A DNA stretch of 50,343 nt from Minisyncoccota bacterium (lineage in GTDB: Bacteria; Patescibacteriota; Minisyncoccia; Phycocordibacterales; UBA9973): contig JBAYHY010000004.1 in the NCBI GenBank assembly GCA_041665885.1, positions 1 to 50,343 on the forward strand, in the 5' to 3' direction. Shown here piece after piece: positions 3,390 through 42,145 of the stretch. Made by a program: the position numbers and the translations under genes. Each line of letters starts with the position of its first letter. The stretch's first letter is position 1. The notes under the pieces are model-generated. The model was not told the DNA's origin and did no database searches. It saw nothing but the letters and a program-made list of their open reading frames with translations.

Positions 3390-3448
3390 AAATTTATTAT
3401 AACAAACTTGCGTGCTGACTGTTTGGAGCAGTATCCGAACGGTATTAG

Positions 3449-3892
3449 TTAATCCTTAATGTATCTAACTTCATCCGAAATAACTTTCCCTCTTTTAAAA
3501 TCTTCTCCAAAACCCCTGGGTAAAACTATGATATTGTCACTTGGATTAACCCAAACTATTTCCGTAATCTCATGAGCATGAGAACGGGTCAATTTTTCTA
3601 GATTATGATACTCGTTTCCGTTTGTTACCTCAAAAAAGAATTCCACATAATGTCTACCATCTTCGTGTGCAAATGTGTTAACGTAAAGTAACTTTCCTAT
3701 TTCTGGTTTTACACCAAGCTCTTCAATTATTTCTCTTGATAAACATTCCTTCGGATCCTCTCCCCACTCCAAGTGGCCACCCGGCAGGGCCACAAGATTT
3801 GCTGGATATCCAGGATGTTTTACTGCCAACAATTTTCCATTATCCAAAATGATCCCCCGACATTTTATAAGAACCTTTTTTTCTTTTTCCAT
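3449..3892 (-). CDS. NUDIX hydrolase
   Basis: Nudix box GGHLEWGEDPKECLSREIIEELG; probable start ATG 3892. Confidence 0.9.
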   Translation of the reverse strand: MEKEKKVLIKCRGIILDNGKLLAVKHPGYPANLVALPGGHLEWGEDPKECLSREIIEELGVKPEIGKLLYVNTFAHEDGRHYVEFFFEVTNGNEYHNLEKLTRSHAHEITEIVWVNPSDNIIVLPRGFGEDFKRGKVISDEVRYIKD

Positions 3893-3899
3893 AAATTTA

Positions 3900-4139
3900 T
3901 TATACAAAAAGTTTTAATTTTTTCTCCCTTCTCCAACGCTTAATTTCTGCTTCTCGTCTTCTTGCTTCCTTTAGTGTTGCAAACCCTTCAGAGTACTTCA
4001 GAATTACTGGTCTACGTATTTTTGTATAGTGTGCGCCGTATTTTGAATTATTGTGTTGCTCTAATCTCCTTTGTAAATTATTGGTACAGCCAACATACAA
4101 GCTTTTGTCTGCGCATTCTAGGATATAAGTGGAATACAT
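3900..4139 (-). CDS. Small GIY-YIG nuclease (UPF0213/YazA-like)
   Basis: TYIL...LYVGCTNNLQRRLEQHN...REAEIK; 79 aa. Confidence 0.9.
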   Translation of the reverse strand: MYSTYILECADKSLYVGCTNNLQRRLEQHNNSKYGAHYTKIRRPVILKYSEGFATLKEARRREAEIKRWRREKKLKLFV

Positions 4140-4149
4140 AGAATAATTA

Positions 4150-4246
4150 TACCTCGCCGCACTTCGCTTCGCTCAGTACTCACTCGGTACCTTCCTTCAG
4201 TTATTTTGTCACGGCCGTAGGCCCTGACGACCGAAGGGAGGAAGGG
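4150..4246. repeat. REP-like hairpin-rich spacer between tRNA-Gln and the GIY-YIG gene
   Basis: gccct...agggc stem (4221-4247), GAGCGAAGCGAAG motif on minus strand, GTAC...GTAC short stem. Confidence 0.55.
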
Positions 4247-4317
4247 CTGGGAGACTAGGATTCGAACCTAGATAAATGGATCCAGAATCCATTGTCCTAC
4301 CATTAGACGATCTCCCA
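4247..4317 (-). tRNA. trnQ: tRNA-Gln(CTG), CCA not encoded
   Basis: TGGGAGA/TCTCCCA acceptor, ATGGA-TTCTGGA-TCCAT anticodon arm, GGTTCGAATCC T arm. Confidence 0.95.
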
Positions 4318-4331
4318 AAATTACTTATCAA

Positions 4332-4373
4332 ACCATTAGATCTGCCTGCGCAGGCAGGCGATCTCCCAAAATT
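4332..4373 (-). repeat. Duplicated 5' end of tRNA-Gln (24 nt) interrupted by an 18-nt palindromic insert
   Basis: accattaga + cgatctcccaaaatt match 4299-4322 exactly; insert tctgcctgcgcaggcagg at 4341-4358. Confidence 0.85.
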
Positions 4374-4424: not shown

Positions 4425-6119
4425 CTATTTTTTCTTATTAATACAAGCTTTAATAAAAGACGTGAAAAGTGGATGTGGGCGAAGCGGGTGCGCTAAAAAT
4501 TCGGGATGAAATTGAGAACCTAAAAAGAATGGGTGTTTGTTTTTCGGCAATTCCGCTACTTCCATCAAATGCCCATCCGGTGAACGTCCAGAAAAGACTA
4601 AACCCTTGGCCTCAAGATCCCCGATAAATGACGGATTCACTTCATAGCGATGACGGTGCCTTTCAATAATTTCCCCGCCTGCTCCCGAACCACCGTGAGG
4701 GCGGGCAGGTTTTTTCCCATAATAAGCATCATAGGCAACCGTACCTTTTCGCAACATGGCCTTGTAGGCTCCCAGGCGCATCGATCCGCCATATAGATTT
4801 TTCTTCAAGAGTTCCTTTTGAGATTCCATCACATCAATGACTAAATACTTTGAATTCGGGTTTACTTCCCTCGTATTTGCGCCCTTCAGGCCCAAAACAT
4901 TTCTGGCATATTCTATCACCATCATCTGCATCCCGTAGCAAAGGCCGAGATATGGGATTTTGTTTTCTCGGGCAAATTTTACCGAGCTCAAAATTCCTTC
5001 CACTCCCCGCGCCCCGAAGCCTCCCGGCACCACGATGCCATCGTATTTTTTTAATTCTTTTAACTTTGCTGGATTTTTTTCAAAATCGGTGGAATTCAAC
5101 CAGGTTAAAATCGGTTTTCTGTTTTGCGCATAGCTGGAATATTTTATCGCCTCGATGACGGATAAATATGAATCGGACAAAATAAAGTCCCCGGTTTCAA
5201 AATATTTTCCTATCATGGCTATCTTCACCACCTCTTTACCGTTGTGCGCATGGTGCGCAAATTTTTTCCAGGCATTCCAGGATGCAATGTCGGGTTTCTT
5301 GCAAACAATTCCCAAAATACTGCAAAGCTTTTCGGACAATTTTTCTTTTTCAAAATTAATCGGTATATCATAAATACTACTGACGTCCGGCGCAGAAACC
5401 ACTCTATCCGCGGGCATATTACAGAAAAGCGAAAGTTTCTCTTTTCTTTTTTCGTCAAGATCATGTTCCCCCCTGGCTATCAAAATATCAGGCTGAATGC
5501 CGGAAGCATTCAAGGTGCGAACTGCATATTGGGTCGGTTTGGTTTTCATTTCTCCGATTTTTCCCGGTGTCGGCAGATAGGAAACCATCACAAAAGCGAC
5601 GTTTTTCGGATTTTCAATCTTCATCATACGGGCTGCCTCCAAAAACAAAATATTTTGATATTCTCCGATGGTTCCACCTATTTCGATAATGACGATATCC
5701 GCCTTGGCCACTTCCCCTGCTTTTTTGATACGTCCGATAACTTCGAGCGGGATATGCGGGACGACTTCCACACACTTACCTTTGTATTCCAAATTCCTTT
5801 CTTTTTCGATAACCGTCTTATATACTCGCCCGGTCGTCATGTAATTTATCCGCGTCAGATTGAGGTCCAAAAATCTTTCATAATTCCCCATGTCTTGATC
5901 CGTTTCATCTCCATCGGAAAGCACAAAAACTTCTCCGTGTTCGGTCGGATTCATCGTCCCGGCATCCACATTGATATATGGATCAACTTTAATCGCGGTT
6001 ACATTCAGTCCGCGATTTTTTAAAATAAGCCCCAAAGATGAAACGGTGACCCCCTTTCCCACCCCAGAAATAACACCCCCCACCACGAAAATATATTTTA
6101 TTTCTTTTTTTTCCGGCAT
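4425..6119 (-). CDS. pyrG: CTP synthase, with a 12-aa in-frame palindromic insert
   Basis: GGVISGVGKG, KVDPYINVDAGTMNP, GGTIG, GGFG, GLCYGMQ, ERHRHRYEVN, QFHPEF. Confidence 0.98.
   Translation of the reverse strand: MPEKKEIKYIFVVGGVISGVGKGVTVSSLGLILKNRGLNVTAIKVDPYINVDAGTMNPTEHGEVFVLSDGDETDQDMGNYERFLDLNLTRINYMTTGRVYKTVIEKERNLEYKGKCVEVVPHIPLEVIGRIKKAGEVAKADIVIIEIGGTIGEYQNILFLEAARMMKIENPKNVAFVMVSYLPTPGKIGEMKTKPTQYAVRTLNASGIQPDILIARGEHDLDEKRKEKLSLFCNMPADRVVSAPDVSSIYDIPINFEKEKLSEKLCSILGIVCKKPDIASWNAWKKFAHHAHNGKEVVKIAMIGKYFETGDFILSDSYLSVIEAIKYSSYAQNRKPILTWLNSTDFEKNPAKLKELKKYDGIVVPGGFGARGVEGILSSVKFARENKIPYLGLCYGMQMMVIEYARNVLGLKGANTREVNPNSKYLVIDVMESQKELLKKNLYGGSMRLGAYKAMLRKGTVAYDAYYGKKPARPHGGSGAGGEIIERHRHRYEVNPSFIGDLEAKGLVFSGRSPDGHLMEVAELPKNKHPFFLGSQFHPEFLAHPLRPHPLFTSFIKACINKKK
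4674..4709. mobile_element. 36-bp palindromic element inserted in frame in pyrG (encodes PARPHGGSGAGG)
   Basis: Arms cccgcctgc...gcgggcagg identical to those at 41210-41248; interrupts the usual YG..IxERHRHRY segment. Confidence 0.75.
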
Positions 6120-6130
6120 TTTTTTGTTTT

Positions 6131-7054
6131 TTACTTATTCAAATATTTTCTGATTGCCAGAAAACTGGAGAGAACTCCCAAAATCACTCCTGATAATAAA
6201 AGAATTATGAAAATCTGCGCAAAGCTGGAAATAAAATAATCATATAAATTTATCCCGAGAAAATCAGTCATTTTACTGCCGAACCAAGCCGTTATCGGAA
6301 AAAAGAGCACCACAGTAATGATCGTAGCAATAGCACCATAGATAGCCCCTTCTACCATAAAAGGACCTCGAACATGCATTTTTGAAGCTCCGACGAGACG
6401 CATAACCCCTATTTCCTCTTTAGAAATAAAAATAGCCAAACGAATAGTATTGAAGGTAACAACCACTGAGATAAACATTAAAATCAGAGTTACCAAGAAA
6501 CCGAGTGTCTGTGCACCAGAAATTATTGTATTCAATTTATCGATTATTAATTTATTTTGGTGATAATTGACCTTATCGATAATGGATGTTTCCCCGGGCG
6601 CGAGAATATTGTCTGACTTCATGAAATTCGCTATGCTCTCATACTGAGATACTTCTTTCGCTTTGACATTCAAATAGGCCCCGAGCGGATTCTCTCCTAT
6701 TTCATCTAGGGCTTGAATCGTCGGATAATCATTCTGGTGACGATCTCGGAAAAGCTGAAGCGCCTCATCTCGGCTAGTATAAGTGACTTGCGCCACTTCC
6801 GGTAATTTCTCCAGAGAAGATTTTAAATCCAAAATCTTGGTCTCGGTCGCCCCAGTAGTAAAATAAATAGTCACGTCTACTTTATCTTTTATCTGATCAA
6901 GAGAAAAATACAAAACGGCCTGCAGGAGAATGATAAGAGTAATGACCGAAAGAGTAATCGTGACGACGAGCACTGCCGCCCAAGAGACCACTCCTCCCCT
7001 TTTGAAATTCAGGAATCCATTTCTCATTATTCTTTTTAACGCAGTCATGGCCAT
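6131..7054 (-). CDS. ftsX: Cell division permease FtsX
   Basis: TM, extracellular domain, three C-terminal TMs, EIGVMRLVGAS motif; follows ftsE; start likely 7054 or 7048. Confidence 0.92.
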   Translation of the reverse strand: MAMTALKRIMRNGFLNFKRGGVVSWAAVLVVTITLSVITLIILLQAVLYFSLDQIKDKVDVTIYFTTGATETKILDLKSSLEKLPEVAQVTYTSRDEALQLFRDRHQNDYPTIQALDEIGENPLGAYLNVKAKEVSQYESIANFMKSDNILAPGETSIIDKVNYHQNKLIIDKLNTIISGAQTLGFLVTLILMFISVVVTFNTIRLAIFISKEEIGVMRLVGASKMHVRGPFMVEGAIYGAIATIITVVLFFPITAWFGSKMTDFLGINLYDYFISSFAQIFIILLLSGVILGVLSSFLAIRKYLNK

Positions 7055-7067
7055 AAAAAATTTTTGC

Positions 7068-7736
7068 TTATTTATTGTGTTTAGTATCTCTAATAATTTT
7101 ACCATTTTCCATGGTAATTACCCTCTTGCCCAGAGAATCAATCACTCCTTTATTATGAGTAGTTAGGATGACCGTCGTACCGAGGTCGTTTATTTTTCTT
7201 AATATTTGGACAATTTCGTGTGTATTCACCGGATCCAAAGTCCCCGTGGGTTCATCGGCGATGATGAGCTCGGGCTGATTTATGATGGCTCGAGCTATCG
7301 CCAGGCGTTGCTGTTCACCTCCGGACATTTGATTCGGAAAATGTCCGACCCGGTGACTTAAATCAACCAACTCTAAAACATGCGGAACATCGCTGGCGAT
7401 TTCTTCTTCTGTCTTGCCGACAGCTTCCATCGCGAAAGCAATATTTTCATAAGCGGTTTTGTTCGAAAGTAATTTGTAATCCTGAAATACAATTCCGATG
7501 CGACGACGAAGCATTGTTAAGTCGTTATTTTTCGCTTTATTCACGTTGATAGACTCAAAAAAAACCGTTCCCTCAGAGGGATTTTCCTCGGCTAAAATCA
7601 TTTTAGTGAGCGTGGTCTTACCCGCACCCGAGTGTCCGACGATAGAAACGAATTCACCCCCTTCGACGGTAAAAGTCACATCTTCGAGGGCGACCGTGTC
7701 TTTGTAAATTTTTGAAACATTGTTGAAATAAATCAT
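7068..7736 (-). CDS. ftsE: Cell division ATP-binding protein FtsE
   Basis: GHSGAGKTT Walker A, IGIVFQDYKLL, MSGGEQQR, IIADEPTG. Confidence 0.95.
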   Translation of the reverse strand: MIYFNNVSKIYKDTVALEDVTFTVEGGEFVSIVGHSGAGKTTLTKMILAEENPSEGTVFFESINVNKAKNNDLTMLRRRIGIVFQDYKLLSNKTAYENIAFAMEAVGKTEEEIASDVPHVLELVDLSHRVGHFPNQMSGGEQQRLAIARAIINQPELIIADEPTGTLDPVNTHEIVQILRKINDLGTTVILTTHNKGVIDSLGKRVITMENGKIIRDTKHNK

Positions 7737-14877: not shown

Positions 14878-15010
14878 GTCGCGTAAAAGCTAAAGCTCAC
14901 GCGACGCGCGTAAACAAAAAAAACACCATATGGTGTTTTTTTTGTCACACAGCTTCATCCCTTTTGGGGCGAAGCCGCGTGGCAAATGTTAAGCATTTGC
15001 TTTACGCGGC
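14878..15010. repeat. Four stacked hairpins between tRNA-Asp and the GIY-YIG gene
   Basis: gtcgcgt/acgcgac (14878-14905), perfect 30-bp palindrome (14915-14944), gcttc...gaagc (14952-14975), gccgcgt/acgcggc (14974-15010). Confidence 0.8.
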
Positions 15011-15083
15011 GCGACCGAGCGGATTTGAACCGCCAACCTCCCGCGTGACAGGCGGGTGCTCTAACCAGTTGAGCTACGATCGC
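15010..15083 (-). tRNA. trnD: tRNA-Asp(GTC)
   Basis: GCGATCG/CGGTCGC acceptor, CCCGC-CTGTCAC-GCGGG anticodon arm. Confidence 0.96.
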
Positions 15084-15130: not shown

Positions 15131-15203
15131 TGTCGGCGGCAGGGAGTGCGCCTGCGACCCCGGGCTTATGAGTCCCGTGCTCTACTAACTGAGCTACGCC
15201 GAC
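15131..15203 (-). tRNA. trnM: tRNA with CAT anticodon (probably elongator Met) with non-canonical D and T loops
   Basis: Fully paired GTCGGCG/CGCCGAC acceptor, CTCATAA loop; T loop CGCACTC, D loop AGTTAGTA. Confidence 0.85.
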
Positions 15204-15998: not shown

Positions 15999-16307
15999 AG
16001 CGGGGTAGAGAAGAGGCATCTCGTAAGGCTCAGCGGTAAATATGGGCCCCCTCTTGGGAAACCTGGAGGTGTGCACTCGTCAAATTCGGAGAAATCCTCC
16101 CTGCCGATTGGCAGAAAGACAATTCCGAGCTAAATTCTCTGAATGATATCAGAGATAAATGTGTAGAGACTAGATGACGGGCTCCTTAATCTATAATTAA
16201 TTTTTTAGAAAGGAGATGGTATAGTCCAGACCACAAACAGAATGGTAGTGAAAACTATAGTGGTAAAGCATAACCTTAAGACCCACGTTCGATTCGTGGC
16301 CCCGCAA
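15999..16307 (+). tRNA. trnfM: Initiator tRNA-fMet(CAT) split by an intron (exons 15999-16030 and 16269-16307)
   Basis: Spliced 71-nt cloverleaf: A1:A72 mismatch, A11:U24, TAAGG-CTCATAA-CCTTA, CCACG-TTCGATT-CGTGG. Confidence 0.92.
16031..16268 (+). ncRNA. Group I self-splicing intron (IC3-like), 238 nt, no ORF
   Basis: 5' exon ends in U33, intron ends in G; IGS UAUG-GGCC (16041-16048) pairs with both exons; P3 CTCGTCA/TGACGGG, P7 GACTA/TAGTC, P4 TTCGGA/TCCGAG. Confidence 0.92.
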
Positions 16308-41209: not shown

Positions 41210-41248
41210 CCCGCCTGCAAAAGCTATGCTTTAGCCATTGCGGGCAGG
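41210..41248. mobile_element. 39-bp palindromic element forming the secF C-terminus and stop
   Basis: cccgcctgc-aaaagctatgctttagccatt-gcgggcagg; arms identical to the pyrG insert. Confidence 0.75.
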
Positions 41249-42145
41249 TTTCTTTTGGTGTTCCTGCACGAGAACCAGGAGTGGCGAAGCAAGGAAAATT
41301 GAAGAATATGTTCCAAAAAACATTCCGGCAGTAAGCATAAGGGCAAAATATCTTGTAGAAACTGGCCCAAAGAAGAAAAGCGCCAAAAGTACGAGAATGA
41401 CAGTCATGGAAGTAGAGATGGAGCGTACGAAGGACTGCTCCAGACTCTTCCCCACTATTTCACCGAAATCTATTTTGGACACATTCGCTTGATTCCTTAA
41501 ATTCTCACGAATTCTGTCGAAAATAACGATGGTATCTGAAACAGAAAGCCCCAGAATAGTAAGTACTGCCACCACGAAGAGAGTATCTACCTCCGCTCCA
41601 AAATAGTGAGACAAAATGACAAACAGACCGACAGGGATAGCGACGTCGTGCAGAAGGGTGACAATTGCGATAATCCCATACTTCCAAGAAGAAACCGGTT
41701 TAGAAACTTTGCGAAAAGCAAAAGCAATAAATAAAATAATCGCCAAAGAAACTAAAATGATTGCTAGAATGGCCTTTCTGGCAAGTTCCGCTCCCACCGT
41801 TGGGCCGACAGAAGTAAAGCTCATTTCAGTAAGCGCGTCTTTATTGTCCCCGGAAAGAGTTGTCAAAAGCAGGGCATGCTCTCTGTCACTTAGGTCACGA
41901 GTCTTCACAATATAACCCAAGTCCCCCGTAGGCTGAAGAAGAATAGATCCCAAATTAAGGACTTCGAGAGATTTTTCTATTGTTGCCTGGGCTGGACGCT
42001 CAGTGGTGTAAACAACCTCGGTAAGCGCCCCTCCCTTAAAATCAATACCGAAATTCAATCCGAAAACAAATAAGGAAATAAAAGAGAGAACCACCAAGGC
42101 TATCGATATACTAATAAATATTTTTTTGTGTTTGATTATAAACAT
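41231..42145 (-). CDS. secF: Protein translocase subunit SecF
   Basis: GIDFKGG, VGPTVGAEL, TLLHDV, SVSDTIVIFDRIRE, GTYSSIFLASP. Confidence 0.96.
   Translation of the reverse strand: MFIIKHKKIFISISIALVVLSFISLFVFGLNFGIDFKGGALTEVVYTTERPAQATIEKSLEVLNLGSILLQPTGDLGYIVKTRDLSDREHALLLTTLSGDNKDALTEMSFTSVGPTVGAELARKAILAIILVSLAIILFIAFAFRKVSKPVSSWKYGIIAIVTLLHDVAIPVGLFVILSHYFGAEVDTLFVVAVLTILGLSVSDTIVIFDRIRENLRNQANVSKIDFGEIVGKSLEQSFVRSISTSMTVILVLLALFFFGPVSTRYFALMLTAGMFFGTYSSIFLASPLLVLVQEHQKKPARNG

Follow-up and report, generated by a model that had tools for sequence, protein, structure and literature searches.

How did a gene for CTP synthase come to carry twelve extra codons, 78% G+C in a genome of 40% G+C, at a point where its homologs have none? 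The question is raised by pyrG in a 50,343-nucleotide stretch of DNA from a Minisyncoccota bacterium of the candidate phyla radiation (CPR) (assembly GCA_041665885.1, contig JBAYHY010000004.1, positions 1 to 50,343; hereafter the window). We put the probability at about three in four that the 36 bases inserted in pyrG belong, as a single copy, to a family of GC-rich hairpins of only 18-48 nt, mobile but non-autonomous, with the ends CCTGCCCGC...GCAGGCGGG, which resemble repetitive extragenic palindromic (REP) sequences and Rickettsia palindromic elements (RPEs) and are adapted to life inside genes. Coordinates are window positions; the window is contig C4 of its own genome, G000 (643 kb, 16 contigs), and the labels G, L, P and C denote genomes searched, fetched stretches, PyrG proteins from a set of 5.8 billion proteins, and contigs, respectively.

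The pyrG insert

The plus strand of the window at 4674-4709 reads CCCGCCTGCTCCCGAACCACCGTGAGGGCGGGCAGG; on the coding strand (4709-4674) the segment is CCT GCC CGC CCT CAC GGT GGT TCG GGA GCA GGC GGG, translated as PARPHGGSGAGG, twelve residues rich in Pro, Gly and Ser. It lies between K470 and E483, flanked by ...AYDAYYGKK and EIIERHRHRYE, five residues ahead of the conserved RHRHRYE motif of the glutaminase domain. An earlier note, made from the sequence alone, had held that homologs have no such segment, and the comparisons bore this out. PyrG was recovered in 38 of 41 related genomes, and the twelve residues were missing in all 28 that could be aligned, the closest of which was 83% identical. 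The site was also empty (aag aag|gaa att) in P0002, a protein of 551 aa and, at 90% identity, the nearest PyrG in the 5.8-billion-protein set, and alignment to the Sulfolobus CTP synthase 3NVA left a clean 12-residue gap (LYGKK------------VYERHRHRYE). The named PyrG sequences nearest to the G000 copy were those of Candidatus Nomurabacteria and Paceibacterota.

At the DNA junction, relatives read ggt aaa aaa|gaa ata, whereas G000 reads ggg aaa aaa-[36 nt]-gaa att; the borders are unambiguous and not a single base is duplicated, so that a target-site duplication is absent. These alignments show a recent, clean gain, placed precisely between the AAA (Lys) and GAA (Glu) codons with the frame kept. 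An identical pyrG allele recurs in two more assemblies from public databases, which match over 3.2-3.7 kb at 99.94% and 100% identity; the same allele thus stands in three assemblies, and the insert is not an assembly error.

The insert was mapped on a PyrG structure, as the earlier note had proposed. In an AlphaFold2 model based on 46 homologues (predicted TM-score 0.81), residues 468-482 were coil, placing the insert between a helix (461-467) and the strand EIIER (483-487), and the mean predicted local distance difference test score was 49 for residues 471-480 versus 77 overall. The insert is accordingly predicted by the model to occupy a disordered surface loop; an unrelated insert was present in the same loop in G032. 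Most likely, the PyrG insert is a tolerated, near-neutral passenger.

Copies in gyrA, secF and a tRNA fragment

Both ends, in their exact form, were found together three times in the genome: in pyrG, in secF and in gyrA. The gyrA copy (C12:16686-16721) shares its orientation and phase with that of pyrG, from which 2 of 36 positions differ, and is translated as PARPHDSSGAGG, the peptide common to both being PARPH(G/D)(G/S)SGAGG. It is inserted between two blades of the C-terminal beta-pinwheel; the site is gaa aag-[36]-gga gcc, as against K(D/E)|G in 29 relatives, all of which were without the insert, and again no target duplication was found. In G018, a 9-nt arm-like remnant, GCAGGTGGC, stands exactly at the junction occupied in G000 gyrA.

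The copy in secF, which the earlier note had recognized by its 9-nt ends shared with pyrG, is 39 nt long and contains the stop codon of its host, SecF ending in ...KKPARNG*. Siblings of this element were found at the 3' ends of open reading frames (ORFs) in relatives, where they give PARNAKA* (L078) and PARNA* (L095), and a degenerate 38-nt relative lies between genes in G000 (C6:7980-8017). A role of the secF copy as an intrinsic terminator was ruled out, there being no T-run after the hairpin on the sense strand.

An 18-nt element had likewise been counted by the earlier note among those of this DNA. It is indeed a related, perfect palindrome, but it lies in a partial duplicate of tRNA-Gln and not in a gene; the layout is ttTGGGAGATCG-[18 nt]-TCTAATGG, 13 nt upstream of the intact TGGGAGATCGTCTAATGG..., and this combination of tRNA fragment and element was also found in relatives. 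Its consensus, CCTGCCTGCGCAGGCAGG, fits the architecture of the family with one basal pair switched on both sides (C:G to T:A), and further perfect or near-perfect 18-nt copies are present at C5:493, C5:7977, C2:23208 and C2:85994. A copy of the 18-nt palindrome in comEC (C9:17094, encoding GLPAQAG) was dropped from the family, since relatives are of the same length at this site (FLPxNxG) and the copy is therefore not an insertion.

Distribution of the family

Genomes were searched with the pattern CCTGCCCGC-N(0-30)-GCAGGCGGG, the same pattern reversed serving as the control. Matches were obtained in 15 of 41 close relatives, with up to 17 copies, and, in a sample of the order, in 66 of 401 genomes and 56 of 223 genera, with up to 32 copies; the reversed control yielded 0 in either set. 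The proposal of a CPR family with fixed ends and variable interiors was thereby upheld, in that many subfamilies of 18-48 nt occur across the order. The subfamily of the pyrG copy (type A), when four degenerate positions were allowed, was found in about 13 other CPR genomes, in 24 stretches altogether; the labels of these genomes are Nomurabacteria, Paceibacterota, Parcubacteria or 'Saccharibacteria'. The hosts are unrelated (pyrG, gyrA, secF, a TatD-like gene and many others), and near-identical copies occur in genomes whose proteins are only 55-80% identical.

The general pattern also matched at least 118 IMG/VR contigs, whose viral nature is taken as labelled by the database. Most of these are GC-rich, so that chance matches are expected there, and only matches of the AATGCTTCGC and CCAGTGCC types look like true members; several contigs of 48-63% G+C carry clear members of the family, for example CCTGCCCGCAATGCTTCGCAACGCGAGGCAGGCGGG eleven times, mostly between genes. 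A full-text literature search, with thin coverage of subscription journals, returned no description of such a family in CPR or Patescibacteria.

Length and reading frame

The earlier note had remarked that the few elements it saw were multiples of three (3n) in length, and this rule extended to 118 of the 141 copies listed from the order (84%) and to 90 of 108 distinct sequences, in classes of 18, 24, 27, 30, 33, 36, 39, 42, 45 and 48 nt. Flanks were fetched for 71 copies from relatives, with a cut-off of at least 150 aa for ORFs; 45 of the 71 lay inside such ORFs, and 44 of these 45 were 3n. Three more, like the secF copy, end their ORF and contain its stop codon, so that 48 of 71 copies fall within, or end, a long ORF, while all five 3n+2 copies were intergenic or at gene ends. 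The other 23 copies, about a third, lay outside long ORFs, versus roughly 13% of the genome that is non-coding; such an excess would be the expected product of purifying selection on coding insertions.

The intragenic copies also favored one frame: 34 of 45 were in sense orientation and phase 0, encoding Pro-Ala-Arg...Ala-Gly-Gly (p = 5e-18 versus 1/6), as were 31 of 34 among the subfamilies of the window's own genus. Phase 0 encodes P, A, R, N, S, H, D and G, and the other frames are rich in Leu, Met and Cys. The flanks prefer G-A-A on their 3' side, where G occupies +1 in 36 of 71 copies and A occupies +2 in 49 of 71; at -1, A was found in only 38 of 71, and no conserved 5' tetra- or pentanucleotide target was seen. 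A target of the form A|GA(A) predicts that about 36% of insertions into G000 genes would be sense and phase 0, versus the 76% observed (p = 7e-8); target preference alone therefore does not explain the frame and was rejected as the sole cause of the bias, to which peptide selection, or adaptation of the element, must contribute.

Anatomy and fold

The arms had been described in the earlier note as palindromic. They are not exact inverted repeats, as the reverse complement of CCCGCCTGC is GCAGGCGGG while the other arm is GCGGGCAGG, leaving 7 of 9 positions matched in register; the hairpin, on the other hand, was retained. As single-stranded DNA (ssDNA), the sense strand is predicted to fold into a 4-nt 5' CCTG tail and a hairpin, which consists of a basal stem (CCCGC/GCGGG), a small internal loop, a middle stem (TGC/GCA in the common subfamilies), and an apical stem and loop. 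The unpaired CCTG tag (complement CAGG) is present in all copies by construction of the pattern. For the pyrG copy, the fold energy was -10.2 kcal/mol (z = -2.25) on the sense strand and -7.4 kcal/mol (z = -0.61) on the antisense strand; the consensus sense strands gave -12.5 kcal/mol (z = -3.65) for 36 nt and -12.1 kcal/mol (z = -3.14) for 39 nt. Full-length sense strands ranged from -10 to -12.5 kcal/mol, with z between -2.0 and -3.7, and hairpins across elements of 18-48 nt from -6 to -13 kcal/mol.

Comparison among copies supported the predicted structure. Among 14 different 39-mers, covariation is seen at two apical pairs (AU/UA/CG/UG and CG/AU/UA) and 94.5% of cells are paired, versus 35-46% with slid partners; in 11 distinct 36-mers, one pair switches from UA to AU; and for the 36- and 39-nt subfamilies together, 94-98% of cells are paired versus 30-52%. 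The basal stem shows no variation because the search pattern fixed it. The element had no match in Rfam 15, either at the gathering threshold or at E <= 1.

Insertion into loops, nesting and repeated occupation of one site

Copies were found within copies. A Nomurabacteria PyrG (P0013, stretch L119) reads PARNAT-[PASNASRSDSGW]-HSVAGG, an element within an element; in G325 (C11:16667-16714) a 24-mer, oppositely oriented, occupies the apical loop of a second one; and G064 contains many 78-nt doublets, each a 39-mer inside a 39-mer. Directly abutting tandem copies occur in G330 and in the TatD-like gene of a Parcubacteria genome (L310). In the latter (JBBDZA010000048.1, 7264-7526), a tandem type A array, in which PARPHDSSGAGG is repeated, surrounds an N-masked gap, and the frame differs on either side of it.

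The PyrG junction was surveyed in an alignment of the 120 best PyrG matches. The GKK|E junction was filled by other subfamilies in nine other proteins, all of Nomurabacteria, whose positions are scattered on the PyrG tree, and the tree requires at least nine state changes. The inserts are PARNATHSVAGG in P0003, P0074 and P0075, PARNATHRVAGG in P0009, SASTRGDSSMRGG in P0010, the nested form in P0013, and the decayed forms PARNESHSGG (P0024), PAHPHQGAGG (P0041) and LARPHKGAGG (P0056).

Two other insert families were seen in the same PyrG loop of other Nomurabacteria (P0030, P0042, P0078, P0099 and P0107; P0066, P0081, P0096, P0120 and P0024). Inserts resembling SQGRSLNLQKGPT are at the same junction and those resembling LSAKALASAD three residues upstream; both look like translated palindromes.

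Loops of another kind were occupied as well. Five of the 71 copies, and the 18-mer of the window, are located in a partially duplicated copy of the adjacent tRNA gene, where the D-loop or T-loop would be. Duplication of tRNA genes by the element was considered and rejected, since element-free partial copies are common in G000, where at least 7 of 35 tRNA genes have one nearby; insertion into harmless, pre-existing fragments is consequently the simpler reading, in which the loops of hairpins would be readily targeted and insertions would last only where the fragment is dispensable. In folds of the site without the element, junctions were unpaired more often than control positions (0.71 versus 0.57; p = 2e-5). 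In G033 (C9, about 61.3-62.3 kb; L046), an old tRNA-Val(GAC) is split by two elements, one in the D-loop and one in the T-loop, and between the arms of the first there is, as 'cargo', another tRNA-Val(GAC) of different sequence, which is intact and has its CCA encoded.

Possible mobilizing enzyme and mechanism

Genes of the Y1_Tnp family (PF01797) are present in 32 of 41 genomes of the genus, and about 40 of them were inspected in 14 genomes, including the copy-rich G007, G064, G128, G200 and G325. Nearly every gene with detectable flanking palindromes had its own, different pair, such as GCGTTAGGTCTTGCCTAACGC in G000. These units resemble REP sequences with their associated tyrosine transposases (RAYTs), comprising about 210-270 codons and their own perfect palindromes of 20-50 nt about 700 nt apart. 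The single gene of G000 (C6, about 6050-6715) is a 223-codon frame with the HUH motif NHFHILV and the tyrosine in YIHLNP; palindromes of the form GCGTTAGG-TCTTG/CAAGA-CCTAACG flank it at 6043 and 6743, with a third at 7339 (C6:6043-7360). Relatives have up to 11 Y1 units, each with its own palindrome, and G007 has an array of six TAGCAAGAACCGTTCTTGCTA repeats. With flanking palindromes of their own and counts that do not track those of the element, a link to these Y1/RAYT genes is unsupported, though such a gene may act in trans. In two cases, L114 and L338, an element was found near a Y1 unit, 50-70 nt beyond its left hairpin, which we treated as coincidence.

A long, autonomous version, with arms 0.5-3 kb apart around a gene, was found neither in G000 nor in the arm map of G064. 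One candidate, on G064 C26, was rejected: the stretch concerned (L177, G064:C26:5800-7900) contains the start of a ClpB-like gene as a perfect inverted duplication, each arm of which has a copy of the element. The inverted repeat may be real, or the contig may be a hairpin-type artefact of assembly.

A mechanism can be sketched in which the element would move as ssDNA, its sense strand folding into a CCTG-tailed hairpin, and would insert into unpaired, A-rich or loop DNA by means of an enzyme acting in trans, for which an HUH/Y1 (RAYT/IS200-like) transposase is the leading, though unproven, candidate. Thereafter, only 3n, stop-free copies in the benign, hydrophilic frame would persist in genes, and variants carrying a stop would be confined to intergenic sites and to the ends of genes such as secF. 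The signs pointing to an HUH-type process are that there is no target duplication, the hairpin has a single-stranded tag, the strands are asymmetric and loops are preferred; as the cognate enzyme was not found, this step is an inference, and we consider it doubtful that a single-strand process of this type moves the element.

Weighing the evidence

Several points weigh against a family of mobile hairpins. Copy number is low, with three exact copies in G000 and 1-32 per carrier genome. No Y1_Tnp gene flanked by CCTGCCCGC...GCAGGCGGG was found among the roughly 40 in 14 genomes, and the numbers of Y1 genes and elements are uncorrelated: G013 has six elements and no Y1 gene, and G003, G008 and G014 have 8-11 Y1 genes and no element. 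The signal for unpaired targets may merely reflect A-richness, and the preference for one frame might stem from a peptide or RNA that is of use to the host as opposed to one that is simply tolerated. Patch recombination, as opposed to re-insertion, could in part account for the repeated filling of the PyrG site; G000 and P0003 share the flanking LRK.TVAYDAYYGKK, yet they are not sisters on the PyrG tree.

Recombination is the alternative that survives best, although we regard it as improbable. It holds that nothing is transposed: elements would be spread or refreshed by short-homology recombination or copy-choice, the 9-nt arms acting as microhomologies, and gene patches would be carried by transformation between competent CPR cells. 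At the PyrG junction, G000 and L120 do have the same arms and nearly identical flanking codons around wholly different 18-nt interiors; the 9-nt remnant in G018 gyrA is exactly at the G000 site; the two type A copies of G000 differ at so few positions, though their sites may be old; and ComEC is encoded in the genome. Conversion, however, needs pre-existing arms, and leaves first arrivals in dozens of unrelated genes unexplained, as it does the nested copies in hairpin loops and the copies in tRNA-fragment loops. Nine-nucleotide arms are also very short for homologous exchange, the clean absence from 28-29 relatives at pyrG and gyrA argues for gain de novo, and the empty pyrG sites of near relatives are already without arm-like sequence.

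Quite improbable, too, is that the family is kept for a function, be it as a structured RNA or DNA signal (a hairpin stabilizing or processing mRNA, or a recognition site for a host protein) or as a functional PAR...AGG loop. The better folding of the sense strand, the covariation of the stem, the strong preference for sense and phase 0, the near-identity of copies between genomes of divergent proteins and the regular placement of one subfamily at gene 3' ends would all be in keeping with a function. Against it, the host genes and the positions within them are unrelated, close relatives manage without the insert, some copies have degenerated where they stand (PARNESHSGG, PAHPHQGAGG and the remnant in gyrA), the peptide is predicted to be disordered, and neither an Rfam match nor the T-run of an intrinsic terminator was found. 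An ordinary lineage-specific loop expansion or an assembly artefact, with the 9-mers shared by coincidence, can be dismissed even though other lineages (G032 and the other insert types) differ in the length of this PyrG loop, since it is refuted by the control counts (the two 9-mers stand 18-21 nt apart three times in the 643 kb and co-occur in 66 of 401 genomes, versus none reversed), by the 34/36-identical copy in gyrA and by the three assemblies sharing the allele.

Relation to known repeats

The closest counterparts of the pyrG family in size and form are the tetranucleotide-tagged REPs, and in consequence the RPEs of Rickettsia. Tagged REPs are palindromes of 20-40 bp with a GTAG or CGTC tag, some of which are intragenic and in frame and some of which lie inside other palindromes; different REPs occupy about the same recB site in two Xanthomonas species, doublets occur, and the CGTC REPs have no dedicated transposase (Di Nocera et al. 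2013, PMC3733652). REP/RAYT 'REPtrons' and REPINs form a related system (PMC3116915). The pyrG family shares with REPs a short, imperfect, GC-rich palindrome, a conserved single-stranded tag at one end, many subfamilies per lineage and insertion in other palindromes, the REP doublets being comparable to the 78-nt doublets of G064. It differs in its CCTG tag, with GTAG or CGTC at neither end; in that none of the approximately 40 Y1/RAYT genes is flanked by it; in the intragenic position of most copies, whereas REPs are predominantly extragenic; and in its 3n lengths, one dominant frame, 1-32 copies and CPR hosts with genomes of 0.5-1 Mb.

The earlier note had likened the insert to RPEs, which are elements of about 150 bp that keep the frame of the housekeeping ORFs they occupy (Ogata et al. 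2000, summarised in PMC10969869). As an analogy of function this is sound: in both cases selfish palindromic repeats lie in frame in unrelated housekeeping genes of a reduced genome and add a conserved peptide at fold-compatible positions. Membership of that family did not stand, however, as the RPEs (RPE-1 to RPE-10, about 100-150 bp) are described in Rickettsia and unrelated in sequence to these 18-48 nt elements of Nomurabacteria; nested or tRNA-loop insertion, seen in the pyrG family, is not known to us from RPEs. Given the CCTG tag, the lack of a linked RAYT, the mostly intragenic location and the 3n lengths, the family is a member of neither REPs nor RPEs.

The small dispersed repeats of Nostoc punctiforme are reportedly hairpin-forming mobile repeats of 21-27 nt, which have no coding capacity and insert into each other and into conserved sequences. 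To our knowledge, no 3n or single-frame rule has been reported for them, and they differ from the pyrG family in being cyanobacterial and unrelated in sequence. Transposition of IS200/IS605 elements by 'peel and paste' involves no target duplication and no strict terminal inverted repeats, but a subterminal hairpin and insertion into ssDNA (PMC6006769). The absence of target duplication, the hairpin and the strand asymmetry are common to the pyrG family, by mechanistic analogy only; a conserved 5' tetra- or pentanucleotide target and a linked TnpA, by contrast, were not found. Nor does the element have the terminal inverted repeats of 15-30 bp and the target duplication of a miniature inverted-repeat transposable element, a deletion derivative of an insertion sequence; its 9-nt arms are complementary at 7 positions in register and there is no duplication at pyrG or gyrA.

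Significance

Selfish DNA that enters essential genes without breaking them is known mainly from Rickettsia and a few intragenic REPs. The pyrG family would follow the same strategy in a far smaller form (18-48 nt), in about one-sixth of the sampled genomes of a CPR order, and by clear rules: 3n length, one reading frame, no target duplication and insertion into loops. Annotation and alignment of CPR proteins will meet unexplained 'PAR...AGG' loops, and phylogenies or structure models that use the insert columns will be misled; conversely, recombination or recent shared ancestry can conveniently be traced with the inserts as markers. The family is also a tractable case for studying how an element adapts to the coding constraints of its host, and the origin of loops, C-termini and stop codons in minimal genomes.

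A bolder proposal is possible, if tentative. The family may represent an undescribed class of 'gene-dwelling' mobile DNA with ORF interiors as its primary niche, in which the 3n length, the absence of stops and the Pro/Gly/Ser-rich frame would have been evolved by the element itself. Such a class would target hairpin loops or ssDNA, with no duplication and no adjacent cognate transposase; it would be spread across CPR, and apparently in other bacteria and phage contigs, and would be a steady source of surface loops, C-termini and stop codons.

Features and other observations

Table 1. Elements of the family in the window, with their host or adjoining genes.
Feature	Position	Strand	Basis or remark
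pyrG (CTP synthase), host gene	4425..6119	-	ORF, 564 aa; Pfam CTP_synth_N + GATase; sources' CTP synthase names; PDB 3NVA, E = 6e-153
36-nt element of the 'type A' subfamily; sense strand CCTGCCCGCCCTCACGGTGGTTCGGGAGCAGGCGGG, in-frame translation PARPHGGSGAGG	4674..4709	-	sequence and frame
39-nt element, subfamily with internal TAA, CCTGCCCGCAATGGCTAAAGCATAGCTTTTGCAGGCGGG	41210..41248	-	gives secF its last five codons and stop (PARNG*)
secF, host gene; C-terminus and stop codon from element	41231..42145	-	ORF; Pfam SecD_SecF_C, Sec_GG
18-nt perfect-palindrome relative CTGCCTGCGCAGGCAGGC, CTGCCTGCGCAGGCAGG; consensus CCTGCCTGCGCAGGCAGG	4342..4359	.	D-loop position of partial tRNA-Gln 5' duplicate
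Intact tRNA-Gln(CTG), adjoins element-bearing fragment	4244..4318	-	ARAGORN; Rfam tRNA, 65.4 bits

Two assemblies of the same population (L182 and L183) are identical through pyrG, tRNA-Gln and a GIY-YIG gene (window 3400-4200) and diverge just past the latter, with an HD_4 gene in one and a NUDIX gene in the other; this is either a rearrangement or a strain difference.

Other repeats were seen next to tRNA genes of G000. At C12:9238-9620 and C2:59900-60100, the genes for tRNA-Lys, tRNA-Leu and tRNA-Pro are followed, 60-110 nt downstream, by the motif AAAA(T/G)CACCTGG(C/T)(T/G)ATGTAAT(A/C)(G/A)CCG, joined to an exact copy of the last 17-19 nt of the tRNA, a layout of a miniature insert between long, att-like direct repeats of the tRNA 3' end. 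Upstream of two tRNA-Val genes (C1:45939-46080 and C3:6032-6230) there are one or two units of about 70 nt in tandem, each of which begins with the first 18 nt of the tRNA and continues with TAGCGACGC...

Elsewhere in the window, a tRNA at 15131-15203 (-), adjoining tRNA-Asp at 15008-15083, was matched by Rfam with 54.2 bits and missed by ARAGORN, and a group I catalytic intron was matched by Rfam over the full length of the model at 16021-16248 (+; 70.6 bits, E = 5e-16).

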